Assembly (NCBI GenBank): GCA_038134595.1
Contig: JAYPVM010000001.1
Coordinates: 4,526 to 68,525, forward strand
DNA: 64,000 nucleotides
Origin: Pseudomonadota bacterium
GTDB taxonomy: Bacteria > Bdellovibrionota_C > UBA2361 > OMII01
Direction of reading: 5' to 3'
Below the pieces are notes generated by a model, which saw only the letters and a program-made list of their open reading frames with translations, had not been told where the DNA came from and did not search any database. The position numbers and the translations under genes are program-made. Below, in pieces: positions 8,958 through 62,824 of the stretch (within the stretch, counting starts at the first letter, position 1; each line of letters begins with the position of its first letter).

Positions 8958-9032
8958 TTGAGGAGAGTCTCATTCATCCTTGTCCAGATTTTGTGATAGC
9001 ATCCCATTGAACATCCAGATATCATACGCAGT

Positions 9033-9665: not shown

Positions 9666-9678
9666 GGAGAAATTTTAC

Positions 9679-9963
9679 ATGAAAACCTTACTACTACTTA
9701 TCGCCTCTCTGATAATCCCTCTCGGGAGCATACACGCAGAGACAATTGATATTACAGTAAATGGAATGGTGTGCTCGTTCTGTGCGCAAGGCATAGAAAA
9801 GAAGATAAAGAAAATAGGCGCAGTTAGCACCATAACCGTAGATATGGATACTAAAGTGGTCACGATTATTACCAAAGACAAGCAAACTATTCCCGATGAG
9901 ACACTCAGGAAAATCATTGTTGATTCAGGTTTTGCGATAAAAGATATTACACACAGGGAGTAA
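9679..9963 (+). CDS. Periplasmic heavy-metal-associated (HMA) domain protein, MerP-like
   Basis: Signal peptide followed by the GMVCSFCAQGIEKKI metal-binding motif (GMxCxxC). Strong AAGGAGA ribosome-binding site. Confidence 0.8.
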   Translation: MKTLLLLIASLIIPLGSIHAETIDITVNGMVCSFCAQGIEKKIKKIGAVSTITVDMDTKVVTIITKDKQTIPDETLRKIIVDSGFAIKDITHRE

Positions 9964-45669: not shown

Positions 45670-47205
45670 TCAAGGCTTAAGAAATTGCAGCGTCTTTTTA
45701 AGACGACTATACAATACCTTTAGAAACACGAAAACACTTAGTTCATGACGACCCGAGCCGTTATTTCTTGAGATCGAGAAATCGATTTCTTCTTGTATAT
45801 CTGCACCCGCTACATTTCCTCCATTACTAAAACTATTTTCGTTGAATGCACTAAGCCTACCCTCGAACTCTTGCGTTCTTTGTGCAATCTCGGCCCGTAT
45901 ATTGAAATTAGATACCTCCTGCTTAACCTTCTCGATAGCCTCAAACAAACTCTGGGAGGCTGCTCGAACTCTCTCACAGGACAATCCACTTACATCCCTC
46001 TGATGGCGGTCGGACATCTCCCGCAATGCTTCCGCCAAGCAAATTAGGTGCTCTACCTCACTAAGTTCCTGATTATCCCGTATACCCTGGCTTCTCTCGA
46101 GATACGCAACAAGCAATCGCTCAAAGGCCTCAAGATCTGCTTCCTTGGGACATACGATCTCATCGAATTGCCAGTTACGAATCGAATGCATCGTAGTAGA
46201 CCAACTCTCAAGCTTTTCATGCACTCCCACGCTATTGTCTTCTGCCTTCACGCACGTATCGCCTATCAAGAACGTATGGAGCACGTGGCTTCCCATAGGA
46301 TTATCTCTTAGAGTAGAAAGGCCATCGGTAACTAACATCACATCAATACGGCGGGACTTAGGCCAAGTATCGAGGTCCGTAGCGGTAAACTCCAATGCCT
46401 CCTGAAGCTTCGTTGTCCCTATGTTTTCAAAGCCCATCAGCTCACGAGCTAGCGGCGCGAGCTCTTCTGCACTGTGTTTTGAACTAAGATTGCCTACCTC
46501 TGAATTAAATGGTCGAACATGCATCTCCGCGCCACGCTCCAAGGCATTGATGAGAAAAGCGAGGCCCAAGCCACGCGCCACAGCATTTCTCACATCCGGC
46601 TTGTATTCACCCTCTGGTATAGCTCCGTTCATAGATTGAGAGGTATCAAGAACTAGATACGCTCTTAATTCACTATGAGCTGTACTACCAAAATCTTCGC
46701 TGTCGCTCTGGGAGCGCTCATCTGGCAGTTCCTCAGTGCGGCTGGAACTCGGGTGAAGCATCGCGCGCTTCGATAGATTGCCATTGACTAATTGATACAA
46801 CAGAACATCATCTGGATAGCAACGCTGGTAGGGCAAAACAAATGGCAGATCGAAGACCCCTGCTCTGCCGATATCCATTCTCTCGGAAGGTGCGTTTGAC
46901 TTATGATGACTGGAGCCCTCTGGGAGTATATGAGTCACACCGGCATTATTATCATTCTGTACCACACCATCGCCTACGCCCTTTTCTTGCGTGGTCGGCA
47001 ACTTGATCTCCTCTACTACTCCCATCAACGATCGTGCTGCCAAGAAATATGCGAGTGCTTTTGGCGAAACTTCAGATAAGCTTACACCATAGCAATCCAC
47101 AAAGTCGGGCAATGGCAACCGCGCGGAACATTTTGGAAGTGCCGTATTGACCAAATCTTTTCTCTCAGCGTTATGCGAGCGCCCGGAGGGAAATTCGTAT
47201 TGCAC
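45670..47205 (-). CDS. von Willebrand factor A (vWA) domain protein, partner of the MoxR ATPase
   Basis: MIDAS motif LVLDTSQSM with downstream vWA elements (TDGLS). It starts 12 bp after the AAA+ gene stop. Confidence 0.7.
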   Translation of the reverse strand: MQYEFPSGRSHNAERKDLVNTALPKCSARLPLPDFVDCYGVSLSEVSPKALAYFLAARSLMGVVEEIKLPTTQEKGVGDGVVQNDNNAGVTHILPEGSSHHKSNAPSERMDIGRAGVFDLPFVLPYQRCYPDDVLLYQLVNGNLSKRAMLHPSSSRTEELPDERSQSDSEDFGSTAHSELRAYLVLDTSQSMNGAIPEGEYKPDVRNAVARGLGLAFLINALERGAEMHVRPFNSEVGNLSSKHSAEELAPLARELMGFENIGTTKLQEALEFTATDLDTWPKSRRIDVMLVTDGLSTLRDNPMGSHVLHTFLIGDTCVKAEDNSVGVHEKLESWSTTMHSIRNWQFDEIVCPKEADLEAFERLLVAYLERSQGIRDNQELSEVEHLICLAEALREMSDRHQRDVSGLSCERVRAASQSLFEAIEKVKQEVSNFNIRAEIAQRTQEFEGRLSAFNENSFSNGGNVAGADIQEEIDFSISRNNGSGRHELSVFVFLKVLYSRLKKTLQFLKP

Positions 47206-47217
47206 GCCGCCTCCCTC

Positions 47218-48579
47218 TTAATACTGCCCCTGAGTCACATCAGTGTCCTGCCCTTCAGCGGCCCTGCTTTGCTTTATTGCTTCTTGCACCGTAGCTCGGA
47301 GGTCGTCCCGATATCGCCTAAAATACGGTAACGATGGCTGCAATTTATCAAGAGCCGCAAGAACACCCTGATAAGAGCACTTCTGCGCGGAGGTAATCCC
47401 TAGAAACGTCAACAAATGCTGCGATAGCGTTAGTTTACAAAGCTCTTCTCCCCTCTCAATCAGTCGAGTCAGCTCTGTCAAAGATCCCAAAGTCGACACC
47501 ACGTTCGCCTCTCCGCCACTAGCGCTTCGCATAACCTCTGACCACGAACCCCTAAAAGCTTCTCTATCTGCTTCGCTCAGGTGCACAGGAACCAACAATG
47601 CAAGGCAAGAGAGATCATCTAAGGTAGCGGCTAATTGCCCCCGCAATAGTGCATGAGCTTTGATTATGCGCCCCATCTGCCGAAACGTTCTGCCGCTAAC
47701 ATCGACTGACGACTCTGATGTTCGACTGTTATACTCTGAAATAATTGCATCAAGATACATAGCAACATCATGTGAAAGATTCATTTCATCAACATGCCGA
47801 TTTATCGCTGATAATTCTGTGGTTGATATCTTTTGGGCCTCAGATATCGAAGGAACATCACAAAGAGCCTCTCGGTTCCGGAGAATAGCCTGTCTTTCGA
47901 TGGTAGAGAGATTGGGAGAAATTTCAGATTGAAATATAAACCGATCCAGGAAAGCCCCGGTTTTTTCATTCTTCCGAACATAATTACCACAGGCAATGAC
48001 TGTTCGAAGCGGTGACTGCACCATCTGATCGCCGTTCTTGTACCGTCTATCGGATAGCGTCCACAACAAACTACGGAGCAGTTCATCACGCCCATCGAAT
48101 ATCTCATCAAGAAAGGCCACCTCCGACGCGACTATGCCACTTTCAACATTTCGGCGGCCTGTTCCATCTTTAATACGGTCAAATGGAATAAACCCATATA
48201 ACTGGTCCTCTGTGGTCTCAAGCGTTATCTGGTTCTCGTAGCGTTTTACATCTGATGCAAACAAATTAAGCACTGCTCTTGCATAGTATGATTTTCCTAG
48301 TCCAGTAGGCCCCACCAGGAGGTGATGATTTCCGGTAGCTAGCGCCAACTGCGTTTGTACCATTACCTGATCATATCCCCTGACATATTTTGAAATATGC
48401 TCAAACCCTGCTTTCATTTTAGCAACAACTTGCTGAATGGAATGTGTTTCCCGCTCGCGGGAGTCTTGCAACGCGCATCTATCGATAGAGGGATGCAACG
48501 TAACATTCAAGTCAACTTGATCCGAACCAACTGGCGCACGGAGATGATAGTCCTCGTTAGGCATCTGTAATTGGGTCAT
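47218..48579 (-). CDS. MoxR-family AAA+ ATPase
   Basis: Walker A (LLVGPTGLGKS), Walker B (VAFLDEI) and sensor/arginine-finger regions. Single AAA+ module with a C-terminal helical extension. Confidence 0.75.
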   Translation of the reverse strand: MTQLQMPNEDYHLRAPVGSDQVDLNVTLHPSIDRCALQDSRERETHSIQQVVAKMKAGFEHISKYVRGYDQVMVQTQLALATGNHHLLVGPTGLGKSYYARAVLNLFASDVKRYENQITLETTEDQLYGFIPFDRIKDGTGRRNVESGIVASEVAFLDEIFDGRDELLRSLLWTLSDRRYKNGDQMVQSPLRTVIACGNYVRKNEKTGAFLDRFIFQSEISPNLSTIERQAILRNREALCDVPSISEAQKISTTELSAINRHVDEMNLSHDVAMYLDAIISEYNSRTSESSVDVSGRTFRQMGRIIKAHALLRGQLAATLDDLSCLALLVPVHLSEADREAFRGSWSEVMRSASGGEANVVSTLGSLTELTRLIERGEELCKLTLSQHLLTFLGITSAQKCSYQGVLAALDKLQPSLPYFRRYRDDLRATVQEAIKQSRAAEGQDTDVTQGQY

Positions 48580-48884
48580 GATTGATTTCTCCTTCCTGCC
48601 AATCGTCTGTATCCGAGACTATCAAATGATTCTGGACTATTAAAACCAAACAAGAATCTTGCTTTGCCACGCAAACAACAACCTCTCGATAAAGATAGAT
48701 TCGATCTCTTGAGTGCCCTAGAATTCTTACGCCCATTTCAATCGGAGCCAACCTGCAGGACAAAACAATGTCACAAACGTCAGACAAGTTGCCGCCTCCT
48801 CTGCATGGACGGTTCCACAGACACCAGACTAGAAAGTACGGGCTACTTCTTTCCATTTTAGGGCTATGGGTATACATTTCGCCC

Positions 48885-49754
48885 ATGGCTGACTCTATTA
48901 TCAACTCTCAATCTATCAATTCTGCGGACATTCTTTTGCTTGGCGCCTGTTACGATCTCACATCCAGCTTTGGAAAGGGTGCCAATCGTGGCCCCCAAGC
49001 TATCGTTGATACGCTTCATACCCAAATCGAGTTTCTTGACCGCGAAAGTCAAGTATCTCCGGCAGAGCACTTGGCTATTGCGTACAACGAGATCGAAGGT
49101 CTCCCTGATGCATCACCAGAGGATATGGTCTCCTCAATTGCCGCCCAATATGCTGAGCACTCATCGTCATTTAAAATCCTACTAGGAGGAGAGCATTCAG
49201 TAACAAATGGACCGTTACGCTATTTTGCTTCAGACGCTAGCGATATCACTGTTCTACAGATAGATGCCCACGCTGATTTGCGCTTCGACGATAGCGACTA
49301 CAACGATACCCCCTACGGTATATACGCTCATTCAGCTGTTATGAGACGAGGTCTTGAATTAGGATATAATATTGTTCAAGTCGGTCTTCGCGCCTTCTCT
49401 GCCGAAGAACAGAGCTTGTTTTCTCACGAGCGGATCACAGCACTCGAAAGAAGGCGACAAGAAATATCTCCGGAGGCGGTTCTTTCTCACATCAAAACCG
49501 ACAAAGTATACCTTACAATCGATCTAGATGGTTTCGATCCCAGTGTCATGCCTGCCACGGGCACTCCAGTACCCGGCGGTCTCGGTTGGTACGAGGGGCT
49601 CGATATTGCGCGAGCAGTTATTCAGAATCACTCATTAGTTGGATTCGATATTGTAGAACTCGCGACCCGATCGATAGACTCAATCACGCAATACAACGCC
49701 GCTCAACTTTGTTATTCACTAATTGCCGAACTGTATAAAAAAGGAGAAATATAG
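48885..49754 (+). CDS. speB: Agmatinase (ureohydrolase family)
   Basis: Arginase-fold motifs GGEHSVT, DAHADL and DLDGFDPSVMPATGTPVPGGL. I chose the start at MADSII... so that the conserved LLGACYD comes near the N-terminus. Confidence 0.8.
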   Translation: MADSIINSQSINSADILLLGACYDLTSSFGKGANRGPQAIVDTLHTQIEFLDRESQVSPAEHLAIAYNEIEGLPDASPEDMVSSIAAQYAEHSSSFKILLGGEHSVTNGPLRYFASDASDITVLQIDAHADLRFDDSDYNDTPYGIYAHSAVMRRGLELGYNIVQVGLRAFSAEEQSLFSHERITALERRRQEISPEAVLSHIKTDKVYLTIDLDGFDPSVMPATGTPVPGGLGWYEGLDIARAVIQNHSLVGFDIVELATRSIDSITQYNAAQLCYSLIAELYKKGEI

Positions 49755-49756
49755 AA

Positions 49757-51661
49757 TTGGAAGACCGGTGGAATATATCGAAAAGCGCCCAAACGTATCG
49801 ACTCGAAGCTTGGGGCACACCCTACTTTACCATAACCAAAGACGGGCATTTAAACGTTCAGCCCTCAGCCGACAATAAATCAATCGACCTCTACAAGCTT
49901 ACGAGCTCAATGGCACGCAGAGGAGTAAAAACTCCGATTCTATTTCGATTTGAAGGTATTATCTGGGACAGACTAGAGAGGATTTTTCAAAGCTTTGACA
50001 AAGCATGTCGCGAGTACGAATACGGGGGATCGTATCGATTAGCATTCCCGATTAAAGTCAATCAGCAACGACACGTCATCGACTCCGTTCGAAAGGCTCG
50101 CTCTGATGCTCGATTGGGTCTTGAAGTGGGAAGCAAGCCAGAGCTCGTTGCAATGCTTGCAGCGCATAACACTCCCGATTCGCTATTACTCTGCAATGGC
50201 TACAAGGATGACGAATATATCGAACTGGCTCTGCTTAACCGAAAGCTTGGTCGCCGAACTATTATCACGGTCGAGCAACTCCACGAAATCGATATGATCC
50301 TAGACGTTGCAAAGAAACTAGACGTCCAACCAGAGATAGGAATTCGGTTTAAACCCTCCGGAAAGGGATTCGGCCGGTGGGAGAGCTCGGCAGGGCCGAA
50401 GGCAAAATTTGGCCTCACAGCTCATGAAGTAGTACAGGCAATGGACCTCCTAAAACAGCGTGGTGCCGATGATTCCTTAAAGCTTCTACACTTTCATGTT
50501 GGCAGTCAAATCACCTCAATATCCGCTCTCAAGGATGTCCTACGGGAAGCCTCACAGATGTATACAGAGGTGGCCAAGGAATTTCCTAGCCTTTGCTTCT
50601 GGGATGTCGGTGGAGGGCTGGCTGTTGACTATGACGGCTCGCGCACCACATTTGATTCCTCAATGAACTATACAATCGATGAGTACGCTATGGACGTAGT
50701 TGCCTACATCCATGAGGCCTGCGAATCGGCAAATATTCCTGCACCCGACATTATTAGTGAATCGGGCCGAGCTATATTAGCCCATCACGCCGTCCTCGTA
50801 ACAGAGGTAACGGATGTTATGCTTAGCGAACCCGAAATGCCCGATGTAGACAATCCCCCGGGCTCTTGTAGTGAGCTACTCGAACTATGTGAAACCGCAA
50901 AAGAACTAACCCTTAAAAACTGTTTAGTATCTTTCCACGATATGCAAGATTCAGGTATTGCTATTGAACAGCTGTTTAAACTAGGGCAGATATCTCTCCG
51001 GGAACGGGCATTTGCACAACAAGTAATCTCTGCCAGCCGACGAAAGATTATAAACTTAAGCAAGCAACTCTCTCACATTCCAGAGGAGATAGCTTTAGCC
51101 CGCGAGAAAATGACTGATACGTATTTCTGTAACTTCTCAGTGTTCCAGTCGATTCCTGACTTCTGGGCAATCGGTCAGCTTTTTCCGACAATTCCGCTAC
51201 AACGGCTCGACGAAGAACCCACGCAACGAGGAATAATAGCAGACCTGACATGCGACAGCGACGGTAAGATCGATAAGTTTATCGATCTTCGAGATGTTGC
51301 TAACGCCCTGCCCCTTCATACGTTCCGTGAAGACGAGCCGTACTATATCGGCTTCTTTTTGGTCGGCGCATATCAAGAAATCCTAGGAGATCTTCACAAT
51401 CTTTTCGGAGATACCCACGCCGTTCATATTCATATCAATGAAGACGGATCATATGAAATCCCATCGCTCGTTGAAGGCGACACAGTTAAGGAGGTTCTTA
51501 AGTATGTTCAATACGACTCTGAAGAACTTGAGGAGCAAATTCGTACTGCAATAGATCTTGCATGTCGATACAAGGGTCTAAGTGATAGTGATGCCGCATA
51601 CATTAGAGCAAGATATCGCGATGCACTCGGAGGATATACCTACCTTGTAAAACACAACTAG
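49757..51661 (+). CDS. speA: Biosynthetic arginine decarboxylase
   Basis: SpeA-like N-terminus (YRLEAWGTPYFTITKDGHLNV), PLP-Lys region (FPIKVNQQ) and full-length collinearity. TTG start with a GGAGA ribosome-binding site. Confidence 0.85.
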   Translation: MEDRWNISKSAQTYRLEAWGTPYFTITKDGHLNVQPSADNKSIDLYKLTSSMARRGVKTPILFRFEGIIWDRLERIFQSFDKACREYEYGGSYRLAFPIKVNQQRHVIDSVRKARSDARLGLEVGSKPELVAMLAAHNTPDSLLLCNGYKDDEYIELALLNRKLGRRTIITVEQLHEIDMILDVAKKLDVQPEIGIRFKPSGKGFGRWESSAGPKAKFGLTAHEVVQAMDLLKQRGADDSLKLLHFHVGSQITSISALKDVLREASQMYTEVAKEFPSLCFWDVGGGLAVDYDGSRTTFDSSMNYTIDEYAMDVVAYIHEACESANIPAPDIISESGRAILAHHAVLVTEVTDVMLSEPEMPDVDNPPGSCSELLELCETAKELTLKNCLVSFHDMQDSGIAIEQLFKLGQISLRERAFAQQVISASRRKIINLSKQLSHIPEEIALAREKMTDTYFCNFSVFQSIPDFWAIGQLFPTIPLQRLDEEPTQRGIIADLTCDSDGKIDKFIDLRDVANALPLHTFREDEPYYIGFFLVGAYQEILGDLHNLFGDTHAVHIHINEDGSYEIPSLVEGDTVKEVLKYVQYDSEELEEQIRTAIDLACRYKGLSDSDAAYIRARYRDALGGYTYLVKHN

Positions 51662-51709
51662 ACAAACACTTAGCAACTTACTTTCACTATTAAACACGGA
51701 ACGAACACA

Positions 51710-52807
51710 ATGAAAAAGAAATACACAAAACTCTCAAAAGAACTCCGTAAATTCATAGTTCCTGAGAGTGATCTATCCTCTCACGGAAGACTCTCAACAT
51801 CCAAGGGAACAAAAACTGGTGTAGTATCATCATATGCTGAACGCACTCTACGGCATTGCAATGGGGGCGCAACGCTTCAATCAGCTTTGTGGCTTAAAGA
51901 GCATCTCGATAATGGTGGAAAACTTGTTGTAAGCGTTGCCGGGGCGCTCAGCTCATTTCAAGTTGGCATTATGCTCTCTGAGCTAATTCGTCAGGACAAA
52001 GTTCACCTTGTCTCCGCAACTGCGGCCAACCACGAAGAGTCTTTTTATAGATATGTGGCACACTCCCATTACGCCTATATTCCTCGTTATACAGAACTTA
52101 CTCCAGTCCAGGAAGCAGAGCTCCGTGATGCTGGATTAAGGCGGATTACGGACACGTTCCTACCAGAGGATGAGAGTGTGCGTATTATGGAGCCTCATTT
52201 GGTTAAGATGTGGCACGCGGCTCAACAAAATGGAGAGCGATACTTTCCTCACGAGTACTTCCGCAGGCTCTTTAAGGAAAAGCTCATCAAACCTGATTCT
52301 ATGGCAAACCCCGATGATTGCTGGACGTATGCAGCGTATGAAAAAGACATTCCTATTGTCATTCCAGGATTTGAGGACAGCACCATGGGTAACATCTTTG
52401 CGAGCTATACATACTCCGGAAAATACCGAAAAAATCCTGACGTTGTTTTCGAGCAAAATATCATGAAATCTGGGCTTGAATACTTTACCATGCTCTATGA
52501 CTGGTACGGAGACATCTCGAAAAAACATCCCGTTGCATTCTTACAATTAGGCGGTGGCATTGCAGCAGATTTTCCAATCTGTGTCGTACCCTCTATCAAA
52601 CACGACTTGCAAAAACACCGCGTGCGTGATTGGGCAGGATTTATAGAAATCGGCTCTTCTCCCATGTCGTACGGCTCCTACTCCGGAGCTGGTGGAAAAG
52701 AAAAGATTACCTGGGATAAGCTTTCAACGAAGAGCTATTATCAGATTATACAGAGCGATGTGACGGTTGTTTTTCCGTGGATAGCGGCGATCTTGTTAGG
52801 GCTATAA
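51710..52807 (+). CDS. Deoxyhypusine-synthase-like protein (probable homospermidine synthase-type)
   Basis: DHS-family pattern VSVAGALSSFQVG...LIRQDKVHLVSATAANHEE and a C-terminal GGGIAADFP...KH region. Confidence 0.6.
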   Translation: MKKKYTKLSKELRKFIVPESDLSSHGRLSTSKGTKTGVVSSYAERTLRHCNGGATLQSALWLKEHLDNGGKLVVSVAGALSSFQVGIMLSELIRQDKVHLVSATAANHEESFYRYVAHSHYAYIPRYTELTPVQEAELRDAGLRRITDTFLPEDESVRIMEPHLVKMWHAAQQNGERYFPHEYFRRLFKEKLIKPDSMANPDDCWTYAAYEKDIPIVIPGFEDSTMGNIFASYTYSGKYRKNPDVVFEQNIMKSGLEYFTMLYDWYGDISKKHPVAFLQLGGGIAADFPICVVPSIKHDLQKHRVRDWAGFIEIGSSPMSYGSYSGAGGKEKITWDKLSTKSYYQIIQSDVTVVFPWIAAILLGL

Positions 52808-53033: not shown

Positions 53034-54521
53034 ATGAAAGAAACTGGTATCATACCACCTCCCGATCCCTTTCAGGCCAGCAATCTCTCTAACGGGATGT
53101 GGTGTCGAAGCACCGCAAGCACAATCATTCACTCGCCATATACAAACACACCACTTTGCTCTGTAAGCTACGCCGGAGAATCGCTCATAGAGGAAACTAT
53201 CGCCTCAGCGAGTAATGCATTCAAGGAGTGGCGCCTTGTTCCAATAAAGGAGCGCTGTGCAATCTTACTCCGCTTTCGAGAACTTCTTCTTCGAGACATC
53301 GAGAGACTTTCAATAAGTGCAAGCCTTGAATCAGGAAAAGTTCTTGCAGAAGCTCGCGCGGAGGTCCTTAAAGGCATCGAGGTCTTAGAATTTGCCACCA
53401 GCCTCCAAAATACAGACTATGGAGGGAGTCTAGAAGTAAGTCGCGGAGTGACCTGCGAATACCGACGCGAACCCCTGGGAGTAGTGCTCGGCATTACCCC
53501 GTTTAACTTTCCAGCGATGGTTCCTATGTGGATGATTCCCATTGCAATTGCGGTCGGAAACGCATTTATTTTAAAGCCCTCCGAAAAGGTGCCCTATACT
53601 GCTTGTATTTTGGGAGAGCTTTTAGTTGAGGCTGGCCTTCCATCGGGTGTCTTTTCAATTCTTCATGGAGATAAAGAAGTAGTAGAAAAGCTAGCTTCTC
53701 ATCCGAACATTTCAGCGGTTGGTTTCGTCGGCTCTACCTCCGCCGCTAGAGCTGTATACAAAAAAGCAACTCAAGCAGATAAAAGAGCCCTCTGCTTAGG
53801 GGGCGCAAAAAACCATATTATCGTTGTCCCGGATGCTCCACACGACCTTACAGTAGATGGGATTGTAGCTTCCTACACAGGTTGCGCTGGTCAGCGATGT
53901 ATGGCCACAAGCGTTCTCGTATGCGTCGGAGATACATCAAAAATTATCGATGATGTTATTCTTAAATCCAAGAGACTTCGTCTTGGCGAAGATATGGGCT
54001 GCCTTATCGACACGCAGGCCATTACTCGACTCCGAGACGCTCTCGACATCGCAAGCGAGCAGGGCGCAGAGATTCTACTCGATGGAAGACAAGGTGAAAA
54101 CGATATACCAACACTATATAAAAACGGAAATTGGCTCGGACCATCAATACTCGACAACACCTCTCAAAATATGGACTGCGGATGTACCGAACTATTTGGG
54201 CCTATTCTCTCAATCACACATGTAGATACCCTCGACGAAGCGCTTAAACTCGAACATAGGTGTCCATACGGCAATGCAACGTCGGTGTTTACTACAAGTG
54301 GCAATGTCGCCCGTCACGTAGCACACAACGCCTCATCAGGCATGATTGGTATAAACATCGGCGTTCCCGTTCCCCGAGAGCCGTTTTCTTTTGGTGGAAC
54401 CAAAGGCTCAAAATTTGGTCACGGCGATATCACTGGTACGGATGGAGTGGATTTTTGGTCGACGAAGAAGAAGATCACAACGAAATGGAGCAAGCAAACC
54501 GACAAGAACTGGATGTCATAG
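53034..54521 (+). CDS. mmsA: CoA-acylating methylmalonate/malonate-semialdehyde dehydrogenase
   Basis: ITPFNFPAMVPMWMIPIAIAVGNAFILKPSEKVP is nearly identical to the MmsA signature. Catalytic Cys region GQRCMA. Confidence 0.85.
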   Translation: MKETGIIPPPDPFQASNLSNGMWCRSTASTIIHSPYTNTPLCSVSYAGESLIEETIASASNAFKEWRLVPIKERCAILLRFRELLLRDIERLSISASLESGKVLAEARAEVLKGIEVLEFATSLQNTDYGGSLEVSRGVTCEYRREPLGVVLGITPFNFPAMVPMWMIPIAIAVGNAFILKPSEKVPYTACILGELLVEAGLPSGVFSILHGDKEVVEKLASHPNISAVGFVGSTSAARAVYKKATQADKRALCLGGAKNHIIVVPDAPHDLTVDGIVASYTGCAGQRCMATSVLVCVGDTSKIIDDVILKSKRLRLGEDMGCLIDTQAITRLRDALDIASEQGAEILLDGRQGENDIPTLYKNGNWLGPSILDNTSQNMDCGCTELFGPILSITHVDTLDEALKLEHRCPYGNATSVFTTSGNVARHVAHNASSGMIGINIGVPVPREPFSFGGTKGSKFGHGDITGTDGVDFWSTKKKITTKWSKQTDKNWMS

Positions 54522-54541
54522 GTTTTATCAAAGGTCCTCAA

Positions 54542-55807
54542 ATGGGTAGTGAAAAAAAGCCGATCAAACCAATAATCCTAACCTCTCATCCAGCTCGAGA
54601 TGAAGCCTTACTGCATCCGATTCATTGGGGCGCTCCAACGGCGCACGAACGCGGGCCAATTGTGGGTGGAATCGCTGATTCACATCATCGAAATTGTATC
54701 GGAACTCACTCTGGCTCATATTCAGTGTATCGTGCTCTTGCAGTTGCCTCGGGGGCTCTAAAATCAGACCATATACCTGATCTAACAGACACGCGCCCCG
54801 TGGTGTCGGTCGGGCCCTTTGATAGCTGGAAGAATTCGCAAAGGATAATCTCAATCGACCCATGGGGCGCCGAAGTAGATCGACACTTCTCGCACCTAAG
54901 TAGTAGCGGCGTTCACGCGCAACCCACCATCGCCATCACTCAGGCTCACATATCAATCCCTGAGATAGTTACTCTCGTCGATAACAAGAAGATCCGTGCC
55001 GACGGCTGTGTTATACAAGAAGACGGAGATTGTTTCGTTACAAAAGCCGCCATTGAACCCGTCTGGTACCTACCTGCCATTGCACAGCGCTTTAAGATCG
55101 AAGAGAGTGATTTACGACGTGGGCTCTTTGAGCAAACCGCTGGAATGTTTCCCGAGCTTATTACGCGGCCAGACCTCTCTGTTCTTCTGCCCCCAATAGG
55201 AGGTCACACGGTTTATTTTTTCGGAGATCCCGAACTCATCCGAGATCCCTCCAAAGAGGTGACCGTTCGAGTCCATGATGAATGTAACGGCTCTGACGTA
55301 TTCGGTTCAGACATCTGTACATGCAGGCCCTATCTAATTCACGGAATTGAAGAATGTATCCTGACAGCACAAGATGGAGGTATCGGCATTATCGTTTACA
55401 ATAGAAAGGAGGGGCGCGCACTCGGAGAGGTCACGAAGTTTCTGGTATATAACGCACGAAAGCGTCAGGAAGGCGGAGACACCGCCGACAAATATTTTCA
55501 CCGAACAGAGTGCGTAGCAGGTGTTCAAGACATGCGATTTCAAGAACTCATGCCAGATGTTCTTCACTGGATAGGGATAACAAAAATAGACCGTTTTGTT
55601 TCCATGAGTGATATGAAATACGACGCTATAACCAACTCGGGCATACAAATCCTCAAGCGCGTCTCTATACCAGCAGATAGAATCCCCGCCGATGCGCATG
55701 TAGAAATTCAAGCTAAACGAGCGGCCGGCTACTTTGTCGAAGAAGCAAAACCGACAAAAAAAGAACTTACCACCGTAAAAGGGCGCTCAATGTCTATAAA
55801 AAAATAA
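54542..55807 (+). CDS. GTP cyclohydrolase II-like protein with an N-terminal extension (URC1/urg1-type)
   Basis: The C-terminal half has the RibA Zn-binding arrangement (VRVHDECNGSDVFGSDICTCRPYL) and downstream RibA-like motifs (YNRKEGRALGE). There is a roughly 200-aa N-terminal extension. The longer ORF from 54260 overlaps mmsA and is not credible; I start at the ATG at 54542. Confidence 0.7.
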   Translation: MGSEKKPIKPIILTSHPARDEALLHPIHWGAPTAHERGPIVGGIADSHHRNCIGTHSGSYSVYRALAVASGALKSDHIPDLTDTRPVVSVGPFDSWKNSQRIISIDPWGAEVDRHFSHLSSSGVHAQPTIAITQAHISIPEIVTLVDNKKIRADGCVIQEDGDCFVTKAAIEPVWYLPAIAQRFKIEESDLRRGLFEQTAGMFPELITRPDLSVLLPPIGGHTVYFFGDPELIRDPSKEVTVRVHDECNGSDVFGSDICTCRPYLIHGIEECILTAQDGGIGIIVYNRKEGRALGEVTKFLVYNARKRQEGGDTADKYFHRTECVAGVQDMRFQELMPDVLHWIGITKIDRFVSMSDMKYDAITNSGIQILKRVSIPADRIPADAHVEIQAKRAAGYFVEEAKPTKKELTTVKGRSMSIKK

Positions 55808-55831
55808 TACGTATACGCAGGACAAACCTCA

Positions 55832-57046
55832 ATGAGTGAAGACATTAAGTATCTCCTTACCCCTACTGCCATTCGAGAGCGCTCGAATCAGATCTTAGCC
55901 CTGGCTAAAAATGATCTCTTAAACCACTTTAGTTTGCACGAAGATCAGATTCATTACCTTTCTAGAGCGCTCTTAGAGGAGATACATCAGAACTATCCTG
56001 AGCGAAATATCCCCTATCACAGCAGATGGCGGCATTTCTCCGTGGATGGATCCAACAGAATCGACAGGCTCAATTCATCGCTAGAAGGGCTATCCTCTAT
56101 GGAAGCCTGCATGGCAAAACTGGAACTTACAGTTATAAGTGTTCTCCTTGATGCCGGCGCCGGAAACTCGTGGAACTACATCGACAAAGCAACCGGAAAG
56201 ACCTTCGCTCGCTCAGAAGGTCTAGCCATAGCATCACTTAATGGATTTGCATCCGGAGCATTCGGAGAGAGGCCCTTTACGGCTTCTGCAGATAGTTTGC
56301 GTGCCATCTCTGTAGAGAGTCTTGAGCAGATATTCCAAGCGACTTCATCTAATCCCCTGGCTGGAGTCGATGGTCGCGCCGCTCTCATGAATACCCTCGG
56401 TGAGTGTGCGCGAAGGATGCCGTGCGTTTTGCCCTCTACAACACCCCGACTTGGAAATATATTAGGAGAAATACTCGAGCAGACTACAGAAAACATCCTC
56501 GATGCCGAGGATCTACTCGCTATCGTACTAACAGCCTTCGGCTCAATCTGGCCTGGCCGACTACTCGTTGACGGCGTTGCTCTCGGTGATGTCTGGAAGC
56601 ATTCACAGGTGAGAGGCGAGGGTAAAACTGACAAATTAGTGCCCTTCCATAAACTTTCACAGTGGCTTACTTACTCGTTACTCGAGCCACTTGAAAGTTT
56701 TGGAATTCAGATTGTAGGCCTTGAAAAGCTGACGGGCCTCGCGGAATACCGCAACGGCGGACTCTTCATTGATGCCGGGGTTATCGCACTTCGAGAGTCC
56801 GATAGCTACCGTATCGAACATTCTCCCTCCTCTGAACTTATCGTTGAATGGCGAGCGTTAACAATTGCTCTTTTAGATCGGCTCGCCTCACAGCTCCGCG
56901 CTGATTTAGGCGTTTCTACCGAGGAAATGCCGCTTGCAAAGATCCTACAAGGAGGCACGTGGAGTCTGGGAAGGAAATTTGCTAACCGAGCCCGCACCGA
57001 TGGCAGTCCTCCTTTAGCGATTAAAAGTGATGGCACCGTATTTTAA
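55832..57046 (+). CDS. Conserved protein of unknown function, candidate URC4/urg3 (DUF1688) equivalent
   Basis: 404-aa ORF tightly packed between the RibA-like gene and upp. The family assignment is inferred from gene order and size only. Confidence 0.5.
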   Translation: MSEDIKYLLTPTAIRERSNQILALAKNDLLNHFSLHEDQIHYLSRALLEEIHQNYPERNIPYHSRWRHFSVDGSNRIDRLNSSLEGLSSMEACMAKLELTVISVLLDAGAGNSWNYIDKATGKTFARSEGLAIASLNGFASGAFGERPFTASADSLRAISVESLEQIFQATSSNPLAGVDGRAALMNTLGECARRMPCVLPSTTPRLGNILGEILEQTTENILDAEDLLAIVLTAFGSIWPGRLLVDGVALGDVWKHSQVRGEGKTDKLVPFHKLSQWLTYSLLEPLESFGIQIVGLEKLTGLAEYRNGGLFIDAGVIALRESDSYRIEHSPSSELIVEWRALTIALLDRLASQLRADLGVSTEEMPLAKILQGGTWSLGRKFANRARTDGSPPLAIKSDGTVF

Positions 57047-57061
57047 AATAAAAGGATTACT

Positions 57062-57700
57062 ATGAAAAAATCACACGCCTTAACTGTTGTCTCTCATCCA
57101 CTCATTCAACATAAACTCACTCTCATGCGAAAGGAAGAAACCCCTTGTTCGGAATTTCGCATGCTCCTCAAGGAAATCAGCCTCCTGCTTGCCTATGAGG
57201 TAACCAGAGACCTCGAGCTTACAAGCATAGACATCAAGACTCCAATTCAATCCATGAAGGCTCCCGTAGTCAAAAATACAGAGATCACCCTGGTGTCGAT
57301 TTTACGAGCGGGAAATGGGTTGTTAGAGGGAATGCTTGAGCTGCTCCCATTTGCCCGAGTTGGTCATATCGGTCTTTATCGAGATCCCGCAACGCTTGCT
57401 CCAGTTGAATACTACTTTAAGATGCCACCTCAGATATCGAAGCAAGGCATCATCGTAGTGGATCCAATGCTTGCCACCGGAAACTCAAGTATAGCAGCAA
57501 TAGCACGGATTAAAGAAAAGACTCCTCAATCTATTAAATTCATGTCTCTACTAGCAGCGCCTGAAGGTATCGAGCTTATGCAGCAGGAACATCCGGACGT
57601 TCACATTTATACCGCCGCTATTGATACATGCCTAAATGAACACGGATACATCACTCCGGGTCTTGGAGATGCTGGAGATCGCATCTTTGGAACGCGGTAA
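57062..57700 (+). CDS. upp: Uracil phosphoribosyltransferase
   Basis: The C-terminus [30 protein letters not shown] is nearly identical to E. coli Upp. PRPP-binding loop [11 protein letters not shown]. Confidence 0.95.
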
Positions 57701-57733: not shown

Positions 57734-58855
57734 TTATCTCGACTCAAGCAACTCGTCGATAATGTGAGGCTGACGACTGGGCTCCTCATCCCATTGGTCA
57801 CTCCATAAGTGAAGCACCTGGGTAGCCCCATGTGCTTTAAAGAGCTTGTCCTGAAACACATCTCTTCCTGAACCTCGCTTTCCGTCAGGACCTATTGAGC
57901 TATGGAAAAGATCTCCGTCACATTCAACGACAATTTTCTTCCTGTCTTTTGTGACGATAAGATAATCTGCCGCCACAAGTGCCATGAGCGGCTGCTCTAT
58001 TAATACATGTCCTCTTGATTCACAGTAGCGCCTCAGGGCATCTCCAACACTTTTCTCAAAGCGGGTATTACCATAGTAATCCTGTTGTCTTTCGAAGCTC
58101 TGCAATTTATCGACATAGGCCATCTCCTCTGGCTTAATAACCTCAGCCACAATCAAAGAGTGATAAATGAGTGTCCAATTTTCCTTTGAGAGGTCTCGTG
58201 AAAGATCTTGTTCTCTGACAACTTGATCCAGACGTTCTGGGTAGTCTTTAGCAATTGCCCATGCTGTTTGCGCCAACGTCGTTTCATCGAGACAGCCCAT
58301 TTTAGAAGACCGCCTCTCTTTCGTTATTTCGTTGATACTCTGCTTGGCAAGTTCTCGCGATTGAATGTCGAGATGTGCGGAAGCAAATAGCAGTTGGCTA
58401 AAGTCTCGAGATGAAGTTTTTCTATCGCTCTTCAATCGTTCAAAAGATCTTTCAAAAAATTGGCAGTGTCTGTAACCGATATGCGAAAAGTCGCTGCATA
58501 GGTCTATAACATTGCGACAATTGTACCGACCGGTGTTTCCTAGAAAGTGATCCGCTACTTGCCCTAAGACTCTCTGAAAGGAGGATTCAAATCTTACCAT
58601 GCGATCTTCCTCGCACAATCCTCGTAACGCCCTTACGATGCGAGAACTAACCACTGGCATCTTTTTAAAATTGGGCTTGGCGAGGTACAAGCGATAGGTG
58701 AGCGCTAAGTACTGTACTCGGTCAAGCACCTCAAGCGATCTATCTTGCACAATTTCCGATACTTTGTCTGAGATCAACGCGGGATTACTTGGCAAGTCAA
58801 AGCTTACTCTTGCTGTAGGAGGCGTTGGTAATGTGTCACGATGGAATTGTTGCAT
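57734..58855 (-). CDS. Protein with a C-terminal RAP/DUF559-like PD-(D/E)xK-fold domain and an N-terminal helical region
   Basis: C-terminal pattern SVGDALRRY...HVLIEQPL...ADYLIV...KIVVECDGDLFHS...GRDVFQDKLFKAHGATQVLHLWSDQWD matches the RAP / DUF559 (Vsr-like) nuclease fold. The ORF-track start is TTG; I chose the in-frame ATG at 58855 (MQQFHRD). Confidence 0.55.
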   Translation of the reverse strand: MQQFHRDTLPTPPTARVSFDLPSNPALISDKVSEIVQDRSLEVLDRVQYLALTYRLYLAKPNFKKMPVVSSRIVRALRGLCEEDRMVRFESSFQRVLGQVADHFLGNTGRYNCRNVIDLCSDFSHIGYRHCQFFERSFERLKSDRKTSSRDFSQLLFASAHLDIQSRELAKQSINEITKERRSSKMGCLDETTLAQTAWAIAKDYPERLDQVVREQDLSRDLSKENWTLIYHSLIVAEVIKPEEMAYVDKLQSFERQQDYYGNTRFEKSVGDALRRYCESRGHVLIEQPLMALVAADYLIVTKDRKKIVVECDGDLFHSSIGPDGKRGSGRDVFQDKLFKAHGATQVLHLWSDQWDEEPSRQPHIIDELLESR

Positions 58856-59146
58856 TACTCGAGTATACAACTGGTAGCAATCTTACTCCACATCACCCCA
58901 AGACTATCCATATACCTGAAATTAATTGCTATTTTCTAAACATATCATCTATGCTGCCAGTCTCCTAAGCAGCTCTCTTGGAACCCTTTACCTCGGGCAC
59001 CCATCTTCAAGCTTGTGAAAAACCTGCAAATAACTTGATTTAAGGACTATCGTGACGGAGATTTCTACTACGAAATAACCACAGACCCCTTGCATTCGTC
59101 TTTAGAAACAGTCCTCGGCTACTGCGCGACTACCTTGTTTAGTCTC

Positions 59147-61726
59147 CTAACACCAATACGGTGAGGCATCCCCGTTAGAATCAAGCAATTCCAAGTGTTT
59201 TAGCAAGTCACTTATCGCAGGAGAATTTATAAATTCGATAAGGGCACTTTGGTCGCCATGGAGCAATGTATTAAAAACCAATCCCTGAAACTCCTCGGCA
59301 ATATCCTCATGAGCAATAGAATCTGGCAAGAATGTTTGACTTCGGGGATGATCAAAAACTCTCCGAAACACTCGCGCCATCTCCAAGCGAGCCTCTCTAA
59401 CAGTATCTGATGGAGTTAACAGAAAGCCTCCCAACAATACCGATATCCCGCTCCGACATTCCTGCTCGGACGCTTCAGGTAAATCTTTTACGAGAAAGCT
59501 CTTTGAATATTCAAGTAAAGCATCAAAAACCAAGGAGCGCAGGCCAGAATGAACTTGAAGCTCTTCCCGTCTAATCGCATCAAAAAACTGACTTAAGAAC
59601 TCCCTTCTTGCCGGGCTTTCAGGATCTCCGATTAATCCATCAGACCACAACTTCAATCGCTTCGCATACCACGGCTGACTTAATGCCGATACGTCATTGC
59701 CGCCCATTCCATGTTGCGCGCGCAGAACTCCGTAGCCAGACAGTGTACAGGCTTCAAGATATTTCATTATCGGTACCGGAAGCGAGTCCTTCACGTGGCC
59801 TGGGCTTGCATCATAAATCATCTCGGCAGCAACACTAGCCTCGAATTCCGACTGAACATCGTGCAGAGAAGTTCCTTCTACCTTTACAAGCGAGAGAGCA
59901 TCATCTAACTGTTTGTTCGTAGACGCTATAAAATCGCTCGCATATGAGGCGACATCTAACCTTGAGCGTCGAAATACCAAGCCAAGGCAATGAGCCTGTG
60001 CTAGCTCATGTTTTTGCATAGTAGAGAGCAGTCGACCAGCCTCCCTTGCTCCAGCATATGAAGGAGGAAGGATCTCGTCGTCTTGACTTGGCTTGCCCAC
60101 ACGCCTCTTTATGAAAGTATCAGCATGAAACAGTGCATCAAAAACATGTGCCACCCCGAGAACAAACTTTCCCTCTATCGCTGTTTCCTGCGTAGGACGA
60201 ATAAGCACGGAAATCCCAGCACTATATGACCTTAAGGTCTCCTCGAGTTCCTCTCTCTTTATCATATCATATGATTCAAGTTCTCGAGGAATTCTTCTAG
60301 CCAGCTTTTTCGAGGCTTCCAAAAATCCATCTGCAATAATTGATTGATTGCCAGCGATATAATCATCAACTGGATAGCGACAGATATCGGAACACTCACA
60401 TACGTCTTCAGGAAAAAACAATCTTAGGTTTAGAGCGCTCTGTAGATCTCCATTTGCTATAAACTTATCAAATAACGGCAGTAGGGTCCTATCGGCAAAA
60501 GACTTTCCTGACCTGTTAGTAGATAAGTACTCATCTAAAAAGATTCCACTGCGTTCGGCTACTTCACAAGCAGTTCGGGTGAAATCTAGTGGAAGACTGG
60601 CACCACTTTCCTTACATCGGAGAGCGGTACATAAAATTTCAAGTGTATCAGCATACGAGCGACCTAAGGCCTTCTGTAAGTATTCCCTAAATCTGGCCTC
60701 ATAATATTCTATTGGATCGACCTTGTAGTCCATTCTCTGCTGTGTAGTTTTTGGCGCAAGCCTGCAAAAAACTGGATCCAGCATAAGATTCTGCTCTTTA
60801 TAGGAAAGATACTGGCAGAATACAGACATACTGTCATAGAGCTCTTGTAGCTCTGTCTCAATCTGCATATCAAATGTCGGCGAGACACTACTCTGGCCTT
60901 GCGCTCCAGCACTCGAGGACAATGCCTTCTGCATCGTCTGCAATCTTTCCCTACTAGCCTTGAGGGCTCCGTCAAAAAATTGCACCGCTGACTCTATTGG
61001 AATCCCCCACGAAAGGTCTTCTCTTACTTCGTCCGAGCAAGCCTTCCACAATGAAGGTGGTAAAAAATAACCTTCTGTAGTGAGGTCCTGAGCAGTCTCA
61101 AGGAGCTTATGCTTATCTGCACTCATTTCCGCAGTAGTTGTATCTGCAATAGAAATCAGGGGATCTGTAAACCCCAATGCTTCCTGATACGCATGCGGTG
61201 ACGCGCTAAATAGCGGGTCTCGATAGCCCCAAATAACAGAGCGACTGGCTAACATCTGCCACTCATTGAGTGCTTCTTTGTTCATTTTCTGACAAAGATT
61301 GCGGGCCACCGGTTGCAGCCTTTCAGCATATTGGCCCCCTTGAAATCGGTGAAACAGAAGTGGGGCTAGAAGAGTCGGCGCCAAATGCTCGGCCACAACA
61401 CTATTACTCAGCATCGCATCAATAAAATTGCCGTGCCTACATATGAAAACATCAAGATCCTCGACGTCATATGAAGACTTCTCTAATTCTGGTGCATTGA
61501 GCGCTAGCCCGATGAGCTTTCGAAGCGGCGTATCCTCGGCCCTCTGCTCGATTTGGTGTGCTGGAGCTGGAATCCGAACAAGAGCCTTCATGAGATCGGC
61601 AAAAGGAGCACTAGCACCCGTGATAGAAGTAGCTACTTGATAAATATCACTTAGGTACTCTAACACCACAGCTTGGGTATCGCGCGTTGCGCGTGGAGAC
61701 TTTTTACGGGACTGCTCGGGATTCAT
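59147..61726 (-). CDS. Large hypothetical protein (859 aa), orphan
   Basis: Long ORF with no recognisable motif. Confidence 0.5.
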   Translation of the reverse strand: MNPEQSRKKSPRATRDTQAVVLEYLSDIYQVATSITGASAPFADLMKALVRIPAPAHQIEQRAEDTPLRKLIGLALNAPELEKSSYDVEDLDVFICRHGNFIDAMLSNSVVAEHLAPTLLAPLLFHRFQGGQYAERLQPVARNLCQKMNKEALNEWQMLASRSVIWGYRDPLFSASPHAYQEALGFTDPLISIADTTTAEMSADKHKLLETAQDLTTEGYFLPPSLWKACSDEVREDLSWGIPIESAVQFFDGALKASRERLQTMQKALSSSAGAQGQSSVSPTFDMQIETELQELYDSMSVFCQYLSYKEQNLMLDPVFCRLAPKTTQQRMDYKVDPIEYYEARFREYLQKALGRSYADTLEILCTALRCKESGASLPLDFTRTACEVAERSGIFLDEYLSTNRSGKSFADRTLLPLFDKFIANGDLQSALNLRLFFPEDVCECSDICRYPVDDYIAGNQSIIADGFLEASKKLARRIPRELESYDMIKREELEETLRSYSAGISVLIRPTQETAIEGKFVLGVAHVFDALFHADTFIKRRVGKPSQDDEILPPSYAGAREAGRLLSTMQKHELAQAHCLGLVFRRSRLDVASYASDFIASTNKQLDDALSLVKVEGTSLHDVQSEFEASVAAEMIYDASPGHVKDSLPVPIMKYLEACTLSGYGVLRAQHGMGGNDVSALSQPWYAKRLKLWSDGLIGDPESPARREFLSQFFDAIRREELQVHSGLRSLVFDALLEYSKSFLVKDLPEASEQECRSGISVLLGGFLLTPSDTVREARLEMARVFRRVFDHPRSQTFLPDSIAHEDIAEEFQGLVFNTLLHGDQSALIEFINSPAISDLLKHLELLDSNGDASPYWC

Positions 61727-61969: not shown

Positions 61970-62824
61970 CTACCGTCCCGCAAAGTCAGTCATGATAGTG
62001 TCCGTTCCACGAGTACGAAAGTAGTGCCTAGTGGTTTTTCTATCTAACCTGGAACCAGCTAGATTTATTGAAACCAACACGCCGTGCTCATGCGCAAGTC
62101 TAATAGCATCTGCACTTATCCAGCGCTCCAATTCAACTCCCCAAACGCCAGTTACCAGCGCCTGTCTAAGCTGTGTCATCGAACGACATCGCGCAACAAC
62201 TCTTACCGCTCTCGCAGGCTTCGCCAGTCGAATCATCCGTTGGACATCTTTTAATTGAATTACCACATTATCAAATGCCCGCATCTTGGTAATAACGCGC
62301 AAGACATCCTGCAACAATGAGTCTGACTCTCCCTTTAAATCAAGCTGTAAAGAACTATCAGTTCCTTTAACAAGAGCCAAAGCATCCTGTAGAGTCGGTA
62401 TACCGATTGTCCCCTCTCGGTTTAAAAAAACCTTCGCCCGTTCAGTAGCAGAAAGCGTTTCTATCCTCCTACCTCGGAAGATGCGGGGAGTAAATGAATT
62501 TTGAAAAGATACGGTGCTATCGTGAAACAGAAACAGATCTCCTTCTGCACTCCTTCGAACATCTACCTCAAGAAAACGCACACCGGCATCAACTGCTTCT
62601 TGCAACGCTGGTAGAGAATTATCTGGCAATCCCCTGTGAAGATTCCCCCTGTGTGCCACTTCAAATGAGTCCAACGAAGCCTGCTCCAGCAACGGAGGGA
62701 CATCAAGCATCGAAACTCTTGGACAACATCCAAGCAAAACGACATAAAACCAGATACATGCTATGGAAAACACTCTTTTCTTCACAATGCGCCTCAAATG
62801 AAACATTACACAGCAAGCTCCCAC
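61970..62824 (-). CDS. Glycerophosphodiester phosphodiesterase family protein
   Basis: GDPD motifs FEVAHRG, FLEVDVRRSAEGDLFLFHD. N-terminal signal/TM. Confidence 0.7.
   Translation of the reverse strand: MGACCVMFHLRRIVKKRVFSIACIWFYVVLLGCCPRVSMLDVPPLLEQASLDSFEVAHRGNLHRGLPDNSLPALQEAVDAGVRFLEVDVRRSAEGDLFLFHDSTVSFQNSFTPRIFRGRRIETLSATERAKVFLNREGTIGIPTLQDALALVKGTDSSLQLDLKGESDSLLQDVLRVITKMRAFDNVVIQLKDVQRMIRLAKPARAVRVVARCRSMTQLRQALVTGVWGVELERWISADAIRLAHEHGVLVSINLAGSRLDRKTTRHYFRTRGTDTIMTDFAGR

Follow-up and report, generated by a model that had tools for sequence, protein, structure and literature searches.

In mitochondria and plastids, the FASTK, HPR-RAP and OPR-RAP proteins play a major part in regulating RNA, and their catalytic status is debated, since FASTKD5 is active and FASTKD4 is not. 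RNA specificity in these proteins is set by the helical repeats that lie upstream of the RAP domain (PMC5449608; PMC6212722). FASTKD5 cleaves RNA in vitro, and its active-site residue differs from the aspartate that is classical for RAP (PMC12242768). FASTKD4, a protein with the RAP fold, is reported to have lost nuclease activity and has an asparagine at the second active-site partner (PMC11879112). Bacteria lack fastk genes according to one review (PMC12687428), HPR proteins were not detected in bacteria in a study for which only three genomes were sampled (PMC6212722), and in one survey a few prokaryotes had one or two RAP candidates. In uncharacterised proteins of Orientia and Rickettsiella, a RAP domain is reported to occur together with OPR-like repeats and a region resembling FAST kinases (PMC7729196; bioRxiv 2026.07.12.738046). 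The gene described here lies in a stretch of 64,000 nucleotides (the window) from a Pseudomonadota bacterium assigned to Bdellovibrionota_C (GenBank contig JAYPVM010000001.1, positions 4,526 to 68,525), where it occupies positions 57734-58855 of the minus strand. Judged from sequence comparisons, its product belongs to a rare bacterial family of proteins in which helical repeats are joined to a RAP-like domain, contrary to the reviews that deny such proteins to bacteria.

The gene and the parts of its product, all on the minus strand, are as follows.

57734..58855, minus strand: complete gene for a 373-aa FASTK-like/RAP-like protein, with an ATG start and a stop codon at 57734-57736.
58085..58786, minus strand: predicted alpha-solenoid arm, residues 24-257, with about six helical hairpins (from secondary structure in the AlphaFold2 (AF2) model and Foldseek matches).
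58244..58525, minus strand: the three best-preserved repeats of FAST_1/HPR/OPR type, about 37 aa each (YNCRNVIDLCSDFSHIGYRH, SRDFSQLLFASAHLDIQ, LDETTLAQTAWAIAKD), residues 111-204 (from a repeat hidden Markov model, HMM).
57737..58069, minus strand: C-terminal Vsr-like nuclease-fold domain (MTES_1575, E 2.5e-5; 3HRL, E 0.004; AF2 fold).
57965..57967, minus strand: codon for D297 in strand 2, present in at least 90% of 74 relatives, invariant in a 29-sequence domain alignment and placed on VDF in the alignment with 3HRL.
57902..57925, minus strand: ECDGDLFH, residues 311-318, the E-x-D-G-x3-H motif in strand 3, aligned to EADGGQH of 3HRL.
57878..57892, minus strand: GPDGK, residues 322-326, the family-specific GPDGG loop that follows the motif, conserved across relatives and opposite a gap in 3HRL.

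The gene is real and conserved because close homologs of 100, 90 and 49% identity occur on other contigs (the only three found in a word-index homolog search), because a 41%-identical ortholog is found at the corresponding chromosomal position of a 94-kb contig, and because the ratio of nonsynonymous to synonymous substitution rates (dN/dS) against the 90% ortholog is 0.50 for the whole gene. Constraint is strongest in the C-terminal domain, with a dN/dS of 0.37 compared with 0.54 for the N-terminal part; for the neighbouring upp and DUF1688 genes the ratios are 0.10 and 0.19. In a mechanical list of open reading frames (ORFs) the start is a TTG at 58870, five codons further upstream, and the ATG is the start common to the orthologs. 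An earlier note on this DNA had proposed the ORF and quoted peptides from its C-terminal part, and both were found in the sequence. No N-terminal signal peptide or targeting peptide was found in the 373-aa protein.

The AF2 model built from an alignment of 74 sequences (m9c7bf1b03365) has a predicted local distance difference test score (pLDDT) of 92.2 and a predicted template modelling score (pTM) of 0.90; it replaced a first model from a three-sequence alignment, in which the nuclease domain was poor (pLDDT 67). In the later model the first 23 or so residues are disordered, and helices forming six hairpins span residues 25-256. The arm is followed by a helix (residues 265-281), strands at 284-287, 298-301 and 307-313, a helix at 330-341, a strand at 344-351, and two terminal helices. 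This arrangement, together with the structural matches given below, supports a FASTK-like architecture, with a predicted helical-repeat arm preceding a Vsr-like domain of the PD-(D/E)xK fold. The earlier note had placed a nuclease-fold domain of about 90 aa behind about 280 aa of helical sequence, a layout that fits the model with the domain being nearer 110 aa. The acidic C-terminal tail DEEPSRQPHIIDELLESR (residues ~356-373; 57734-57790, minus strand) takes the form, in the model, of helices packed after the nuclease domain, and it recalls the C-terminal 'Key' helix described for FASTKD4 (PMC11879112).

A Foldseek search of the PDB with the full-length model returned the Toxoplasma mitoribosomal RAP proteins 9i05_Xi (E 7.7e-7, TMq 0.70) and 9g6k_LJ (TMq 0.67), as well as the crystal structure of the FAST1-FAST2-RAP portion of human FASTKD4 (9gek; E 9.3e-6, TMq 0.52). 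The top 19 matches are all eukaryotic organellar helical-repeat proteins, and the earlier low-confidence model gave the same trend. The repeats are also detectable by sequence. A repeat HMM built on relatives only, with both the window protein and P0025, its 41%-identical ortholog, excluded, matches residues 114-203 of the window protein at 22-23.5 bits, and 500 shuffles of the N-terminal 262 residues scored at most 9.5 bits. Since the score far exceeds those of the shuffles, the window protein carries the repeats in a degenerate form. Structure prediction of the N-terminal region had been proposed as a check for helical repeats like those of FAST_1 and FAST_2; repeats of the FAST_1 type were found there, and the model matches the FAST1-FAST2-RAP structure.

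To collect relatives, a profile was made from the three close homologs, and a search with it of 1.84 billion representative proteins yielded 76 matches at E<=1e-3, of which 41 reach E<=1e-10. The majority of the 76 align over profile positions ~100 to 360, which takes in both the helical and the nuclease parts. A Pfam scan covered 74 of them and gave MTES_1575 in 61/74 and RAP in 19/74 (best 8.4e-9), both at E<=0.01, along with FAST_1 in 27/74 (best 4.2e-18), DUF6832 in 14/74 and DUF559 in 12/74; FAST_2 matched none of the 74. Long members of the family, such as P0027, carry near-perfect tandem repeats of about 37 residues (FxPxELAxTAWAFATLGFRDxxLFxALAxEAA) before the nuclease domain, while about a dozen short members of 355-390 aa, such as P0033, P0040 and P0045, are colinear with the window protein. 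Through its repeats, the family profile matches by sequence the trypanosome protein RESC6 (1.6e-48), mL115, Toxoplasma RAP proteins and FASTKD4 (2.8e-11).

All of the relatives found are on metagenomic bacterial contigs, those that can be identified belong to metagenome-assembled genomes (MAGs) of Bdellovibrionota, and no eukaryotic sequence is among them. Where a relative looked up in clusters has a name, it is 'hypothetical protein'. When one genome per GTDB species was scanned with a degenerate DNA pattern for ECDGxxxHxxxGPDG, 11 loci were returned. Eight of these are true members: five lie in MAGs of Bdellovibrionota or Bdellovibrionales, two in unclassified MAGs labelled 'Bacterium' and one in a Sediminibacterium MAG; the remaining three (L006, L007 and L009) were chance matches and were set aside. 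An earlier GTDB genome scan with patterns taken from the close homologs had found no relative. All 74 relatives resemble the members from the genome scan. In Bdellovibrionota MAGs the family members are stand-alone genes in ordinary chromosomal contexts, and the neighbourhoods of the members from the scan hold ordinary bacterial genes and no conserved partner gene. The member in the Sediminibacterium (Bacteroidota) MAG (L003) lies on a contig of 524 bp, JALRFB010000358.1, and is 99% identical to P0052; on so short a contig it may reflect a binning error rather than prove that the family occurs in Bacteroidota. The earlier suggestion that the protein, if RAP, would be eukaryote-like is apt for its architecture, given the TMq of 0.70 to 9i05_Xi, the match to 9gek and the occurrence of FAST_1 and RAP among the relatives, and it does not extend to phyletic distribution, which is bacterial for all the relatives found.

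In the nuclease domain, D297, E311, D313, G314, H318, G330, D332 and H349 each reach at least 90% conservation among the 74 relatives. All of them are present in the window protein, as are E267, for which the figure in the 29-sequence domain alignment is likewise 90% or higher, and two residues that are invariant among the 17 closest relatives, Q335 and D336. The acidic residues of the domain could have proved absent from an alignment, which would have spoken against a nuclease fold; the opposite was found, with a D/E/H set that is near-invariant. The E-x-D-G-x3-H motif is common to DUF559, MTES_1575 and RAP domains, and alignment with 3HRL, a structure of DUF559 type, gives a D...ExDG..H arrangement. 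A by-eye alignment suggests that D297 is the equivalent of the Vsr active-site aspartate Asp51, which has been discussed for FASTK proteins. The domain does not have the lysine of the classical (D/E)xK type, and the absence of this lysine is normal for the Vsr/DUF559/RAP branch. The GPDGG loop is a signature of the family and is absent from 3HRL; a described bacterial family with the short form or this signature was not found in the literature searched, nor was any link between the RAP domain and Bdellovibrio. The RAP domain has been defined by a nuclease fold (PMC12687428), and the AF2 secondary structure together with the conserved motif agrees with that definition.

The window protein taken alone fails the formal membership test of every named family. 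Its sole Pfam match is MTES_1575 (PF18741), and the scores, 21.3 bits with the full protein and 24.7 bits (E 2.5e-5) with the C-terminal domain by itself, are both below the cut-off. RAP (PF08373) and DUF559 (PF04480) match neither the protein nor its C-terminal domain even at E<=10, FAST_1 (PF06743) matches neither the protein nor residues 1-262, FAST_2 (PF08368) does not match the protein, and no match to the Vsr family itself was obtained. Searches of NCBIfam with the 373-aa protein gave nothing, and a sequence search of the PDB with the single protein gave nothing useful. The consensus sequences of the family, scored against the Pfam gathering cut-offs, gave the following results.

Repeat consensus, FAST_1: 50.6 bits (cut-off 27.4 bits).
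Repeat consensus, DUF6832: 26.9 bits (cut-off 26 bits).
C-terminal domain consensus, MTES_1575: 56.8 bits (cut-off 38.2 bits).
C-terminal domain consensus, RAP: 30.4 bits (cut-off 24.2 bits).
C-terminal domain consensus, DUF559: 24.8 bits (cut-off 20.6 bits).

Pfam is unable to decide between MTES_1575 and RAP because the two scores are approximately equal per matched model position (~0.6 bit each), the RAP model having only 58 positions. The only PDB chain found by sequence with the domain profile was 3HRL (E 0.004, with the motif aligned), and that search found no eukaryotic RAP chain in the PDB. A word-index search with the family profile returned few further family members and mostly ~1525-aa SF1 helicases that end in MTES_1575/DUF559 domains and are annotated as 'very-short-patch-repair endonuclease'. 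The nuclease domain is thus a Vsr-like domain that stands between the bacterial MTES_1575/DUF559 domains and the eukaryotic RAP domain. A profile check of RAP against DUF559 had been proposed as a way to tell a eukaryote-like protein from a bacterial one; the protein itself matched neither, the family consensus passed both as well as MTES_1575 (the best of the three), and the choice between RAP and DUF559 is in this case a false dichotomy, to which there is no clean answer.

The function preferred here, with a probability of roughly 0.55, is that of a repeat-guided endonuclease of the FASTK/RAP kind which acts on single-stranded nucleic acid, most likely RNA. The alpha-solenoid would bind an extended single strand along its inner surface and present it to the Vsr-like nuclease domain, which would cut it with an active-site set consisting of E267, D297, E311, D313 and H318. 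By analogy with the eukaryotic relatives, from which RNA as the substrate, catalytic activity and a cytoplasmic location are all derived, the protein would be a target-selective endoribonuclease or an RNA-processing factor in the bacterium's own cytoplasm. Several points weigh against this assignment. The predicted isoelectric point of the protein is near-neutral (6.6) rather than strongly basic, and the protein on its own passes no FAST_1, FAST_2 or RAP cut-off. RNA as the substrate is suggested by analogy, and the nuclease domain is closest by sequence to MTES_1575/DUF559, whose characterised relative Vsr cuts DNA. In addition, since FASTKD4 is non-catalytic and the active-site residue of FASTKD5 differs, the mechanism is not simply transferable.

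The alternative that survives best, though it is unlikely, is a DNA-directed nuclease similar to Vsr, DUF559 and MTES_1575 proteins, which would act in repair, restriction-like defence or control of mobile elements and whose arm would bind DNA or a partner. MTES_1575, a restriction-endonuclease-like family, is indeed the best Pfam match of the protein and of 61 of its 74 relatives, the endonuclease-like 3HRL is the only solved chain reached by sequence, and the helicases retrieved with the family profile bear the annotation of repair endonucleases. However, no methylase, helicase or other defence-type partner lies beside the gene in the window or at the Bdellovibrionota loci, neither the protein nor its neighbour matches a PADLOC defence family, and the gene is not found on plasmids or phages. 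The whole-protein structural neighbours, moreover, are all RNA-binding organellar proteins, and repeats of the HPR, OPR and FAST types are known RNA binders (PMC6212722; PMC12242768).

The two elements upstream of the gene are as follows.

58856..59146, minus strand: upstream spacer of 291 nt, containing short conserved blocks that the orthologs on L014 and L013 share.
59147..61726, minus strand: gene for an 859-aa orphan, immediately upstream on the same strand and upstream in all orthologous contigs.

The window and the orthologous contigs share a gene order of mlaEFDC, rnhA, GDPD, the 859-aa orphan and the RAP-like gene, followed by convergent genes for, in order, upp, DUF1688, a GTP-cyclohydrolase-II-like protein, aldehyde dehydrogenase, a deoxyhypusine-synthase-like protein, arginine decarboxylase and agmatinase. 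The slot between the 859-aa orphan and upp is kept in orthologs of 90, 49 and 41% identity. Compared with the most distant ortholog contig, the metabolic neighbours are 72-90% identical, whereas the RAP-like protein is 41% and the 859-aa orphan 38% identical, so that the orphan evolves as fast as the RAP-like gene. The gene is old and vertically inherited in its lineage and evolves fast; it does not belong to a recent island. A recent horizontal acquisition, where the earlier note had raised a horizontal one, is not supported: the locus is fixed in orthologs down to 41% identity, the GC content of the gene is like that of its surroundings and uniform across the window, and no plasmid or phage copy of the protein or of the family consensus was matched. 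Three other readings were tried and dropped: a mobile element, for which the protein and the family consensus had no plasmid or phage matches; a defence system, for which the protein and the 859-aa neighbour had no PADLOC matches; and a toxin with its immunity protein, for which no small partner ORF was present in the spacer or downstream.

The conserved blocks of the spacer are TAATTTCA, TGGAGTA and, just before the ATG, GTATACT. The spacer contains no ORF of note, and a scan of the region for consensus promoters and terminators gave nothing convincing; a promoter belonging to the gene itself probably lies in the spacer. Pfam, NCBIfam and PADLOC gave no match for the 859-aa orphan, and its single weak sequence match in the PDB (E 0.015) is probably due to chance; the orphan is not related by sequence to the RAP-like protein. 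In the distant relative L017, which has orphans at 4920-7520 and 7552-9762, a further orphan of 736 aa is encoded on the opposite strand between the two genes; it has no Pfam match and no homolog in the window. The window contains no second family member and no rRNA or other Rfam match. Its MnmG is 77% identical to that of the best named relative, a MAG labelled 'Pseudomonadota bacterium', and 52% identical to E. coli MnmG. Besides the mla genes, topA, mnmG and cysDN, it encodes sulfate assimilation and amino-acid, polyamine and pyrimidine metabolism, and this content does not look like that of a reduced, host-dependent genome, although 64 kb are too little to settle the lifestyle.

A secreted, eukaryote-like effector of a type III, IV or VI system, which would mimic organellar FASTK/RAP proteins and act on mitochondrial or plastid RNA, is improbable. 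The whole-protein similarity to mitochondrial RAP proteins and the acidic tail DEEPSRQPHIIDELLESR are consistent with such a role, as are the several large orphans in the window and the rates at which the gene and the 859-aa orphan outpace their neighbours (41 and 38% against 72-90% identity; dN/dS 0.50 against 0.10-0.19), as effectors often do. The intracellular bacteria Orientia and Rickettsiella have also been described as having OPR, FAST and RAP proteins, and the RipS type III effectors as having OPR-like repeats (PMC7729196; bioRxiv 2026.07.12.738046). Against this, family scans of the window proteins turned up no secretion genes, and no secretion system, chaperone or signal was seen in the 64 kb. 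The relatives that have an organism name are in Bdellovibrionota MAGs, and Bdellovibrionota are mainly known as predators of bacteria, a prey that has no organelles on which such an effector could act. The fixed locus with native GC and vertical inheritance, the broad biosynthetic metabolism of the window, and a nuclease domain that is no more distant from bacterial MTES_1575/DUF559 than from eukaryotic RAP all argue in the same direction. A host-associated lifestyle had been read from two large orphans adjoining the gene; one of these stands (the 859-aa ORF at 59147-61726), while the ORF at 61970-62824 encodes a 284-aa phosphodiesterase of the GDPD family, and with one adjoining orphan and broad biosynthetic capacity the window does not bear that lifestyle out. 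The gene is not evidence of a eukaryote-derived effector.

Least probable, by a little, is a non-catalytic scaffold that binds RNA or protein, for example on rRNA or a specific mRNA, in the manner of FASTKD4 and the Toxoplasma mitoribosome RAP proteins: the closest structural matches are indeed structural components of mitoribosomes and FASTKD4 is reported to have lost nuclease activity, but the window protein retains the full E...D...ExDG...H set, which is at least 90% conserved in the 74 relatives, FASTKD4 by contrast has an asparagine in place of the second active-site partner (PMC11879112), and no part of the gene is under stronger constraint than the C-terminal domain.

What makes the protein interesting is mainly its bearing on the enzymology of the FASTK/RAP superfamily and on where that superfamily came from. 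It is conceivable, but doubtful, that the family represents native bacterial members of the HPR/OPR/FAST-plus-RAP superfamily which are natural repeat-guided, sequence-selective RNA endonucleases, their architecture having arisen in bacteria or been exchanged with them early. If this were true, an architecture that eukaryotes expanded for the control of organellar RNA would have arisen in, or been exchanged early with, bacteria, and the intermediate nuclease domain bears on the origin of the eukaryotic families. Recombinant production of human FASTK-family proteins is technically difficult (PMC12687428). The bacterial protein is compact (~375 aa), with a complete motif and a confident model, and may be a simpler subject than the human proteins; it would allow a study of how RNA is read by the repeats and of whether a RAP-type fold cleaves it. 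Were the protein an effector instead, it would represent a new way to interfere with host organelle gene expression.

Several observations concern other genes of the window. The GDPD-family glycerophosphodiester phosphodiesterase (61970-62824, minus strand, 284 aa) has weak partial matches of PI-PLC-X and AvrBs2 type, a hydrophobic, lipoprotein-like N-terminus and 55% identity to its counterpart in the distant ortholog. Large orphans number five in the 64 kb (859, 599, 591, 569 and 511 aa). Those of 599, 591 and 569 aa (393-2192, plus strand; 3862-5637, minus strand; 23574-25283, minus strand) have no Pfam or PADLOC match, and neither has the 511-aa orphan (45670-47205, minus strand), which adjoins bpMoxR (47218-48579, minus strand), a MoxR-type AAA ATPase of the 'MoxR-vWA-beta-propeller ternary system' family. 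A polyamine cluster at 48768-52807 (plus strand) encodes an arginase-family (agmatinase-like) protein, arginine decarboxylase and a deoxyhypusine-synthase-like protein, which are 78-90% identical in the distant ortholog contig; the last of these is possibly a homospermidine synthase. Four same-strand genes follow at 53034-57700 (plus strand), in an order that is kept in the orthologous contigs.

53034-54521, plus strand: aldehyde dehydrogenase.
About 54485-55807, plus strand: protein with GTP_CH_N and GTP-cyclohydrolase-II-like parts.
55832-57046, plus strand: DUF1688 protein.
57062-57700, plus strand: uracil phosphoribosyltransferase (upp).

The GTP-cyclohydrolase-II-like protein, the DUF1688 protein and the uracil phosphoribosyltransferase are presumably the counterparts of URC1, URC4 and URC6 in the URC pathway by which yeast catabolises uracil, and the four genes may form a bacterial URC-type cluster for pyrimidine degradation.

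Among known systems, MTES_1575 (PF18741), DUF559 (PF04480) and Vsr proteins share with the window protein the nuclease-fold core and the D...ExDG...H motif. The MTES_1575 and DUF559 domains that were retrieved end SF1 helicases of ~1525 aa and were not seen behind repeats of the FAST_1 type, and domains of these two families occur also as small stand-alone proteins; the window protein, unlike them, has a helical-repeat arm and scores under the cut-offs of both families. The proteins of Orientia tsutsugamushi (KJV97331.1) and Candidatus Rickettsiella isopodorum, compared by description only, are likewise bacterial and are reported likewise to combine repeats with a RAP-type domain. The named hosts of the present family, in contrast, are Bdellovibrionota MAGs, and neither these nor the uncultured lineage of the window are a known obligate intracellular group.

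The human FASTK family (FASTK and FASTKD1-5, with FAST_1 and FAST_2 as well as RAP) differs in its mitochondrial context, which the bacterial proteins do not have, and in FAST_2, for which the 74 relatives gave no match. FASTKD4, which is non-catalytic and has an asparagine at the second site, differs further in that the bacterial family keeps His318 there. The likenesses to the human family are the structural match to 9gek, a repeat consensus that exceeds the FAST_1 cut-off, and a putative active-site aspartate in an equivalent position. From the eukaryotic organellar helical-repeat proteins with a RAP domain, which include those in 9i05 (chain Xi) and 9g6k (chain LJ), the Chlamydomonas OPR-RAP proteins and trypanosome RESC6, the window protein differs in being encoded on a bacterial chromosome without a targeting peptide and in being much shorter (373 aa), as well as in scoring under the Pfam cut-off for RAP, possessing the GPDGG loop and having its best score with the bacterial MTES_1575 family. 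It resembles these organellar proteins in its whole predicted fold, with a full-length TM of 0.70, and in the alpha-solenoid upstream of the nuclease domain, with its repeats of ~37-38 aa of the HPR/OPR type.

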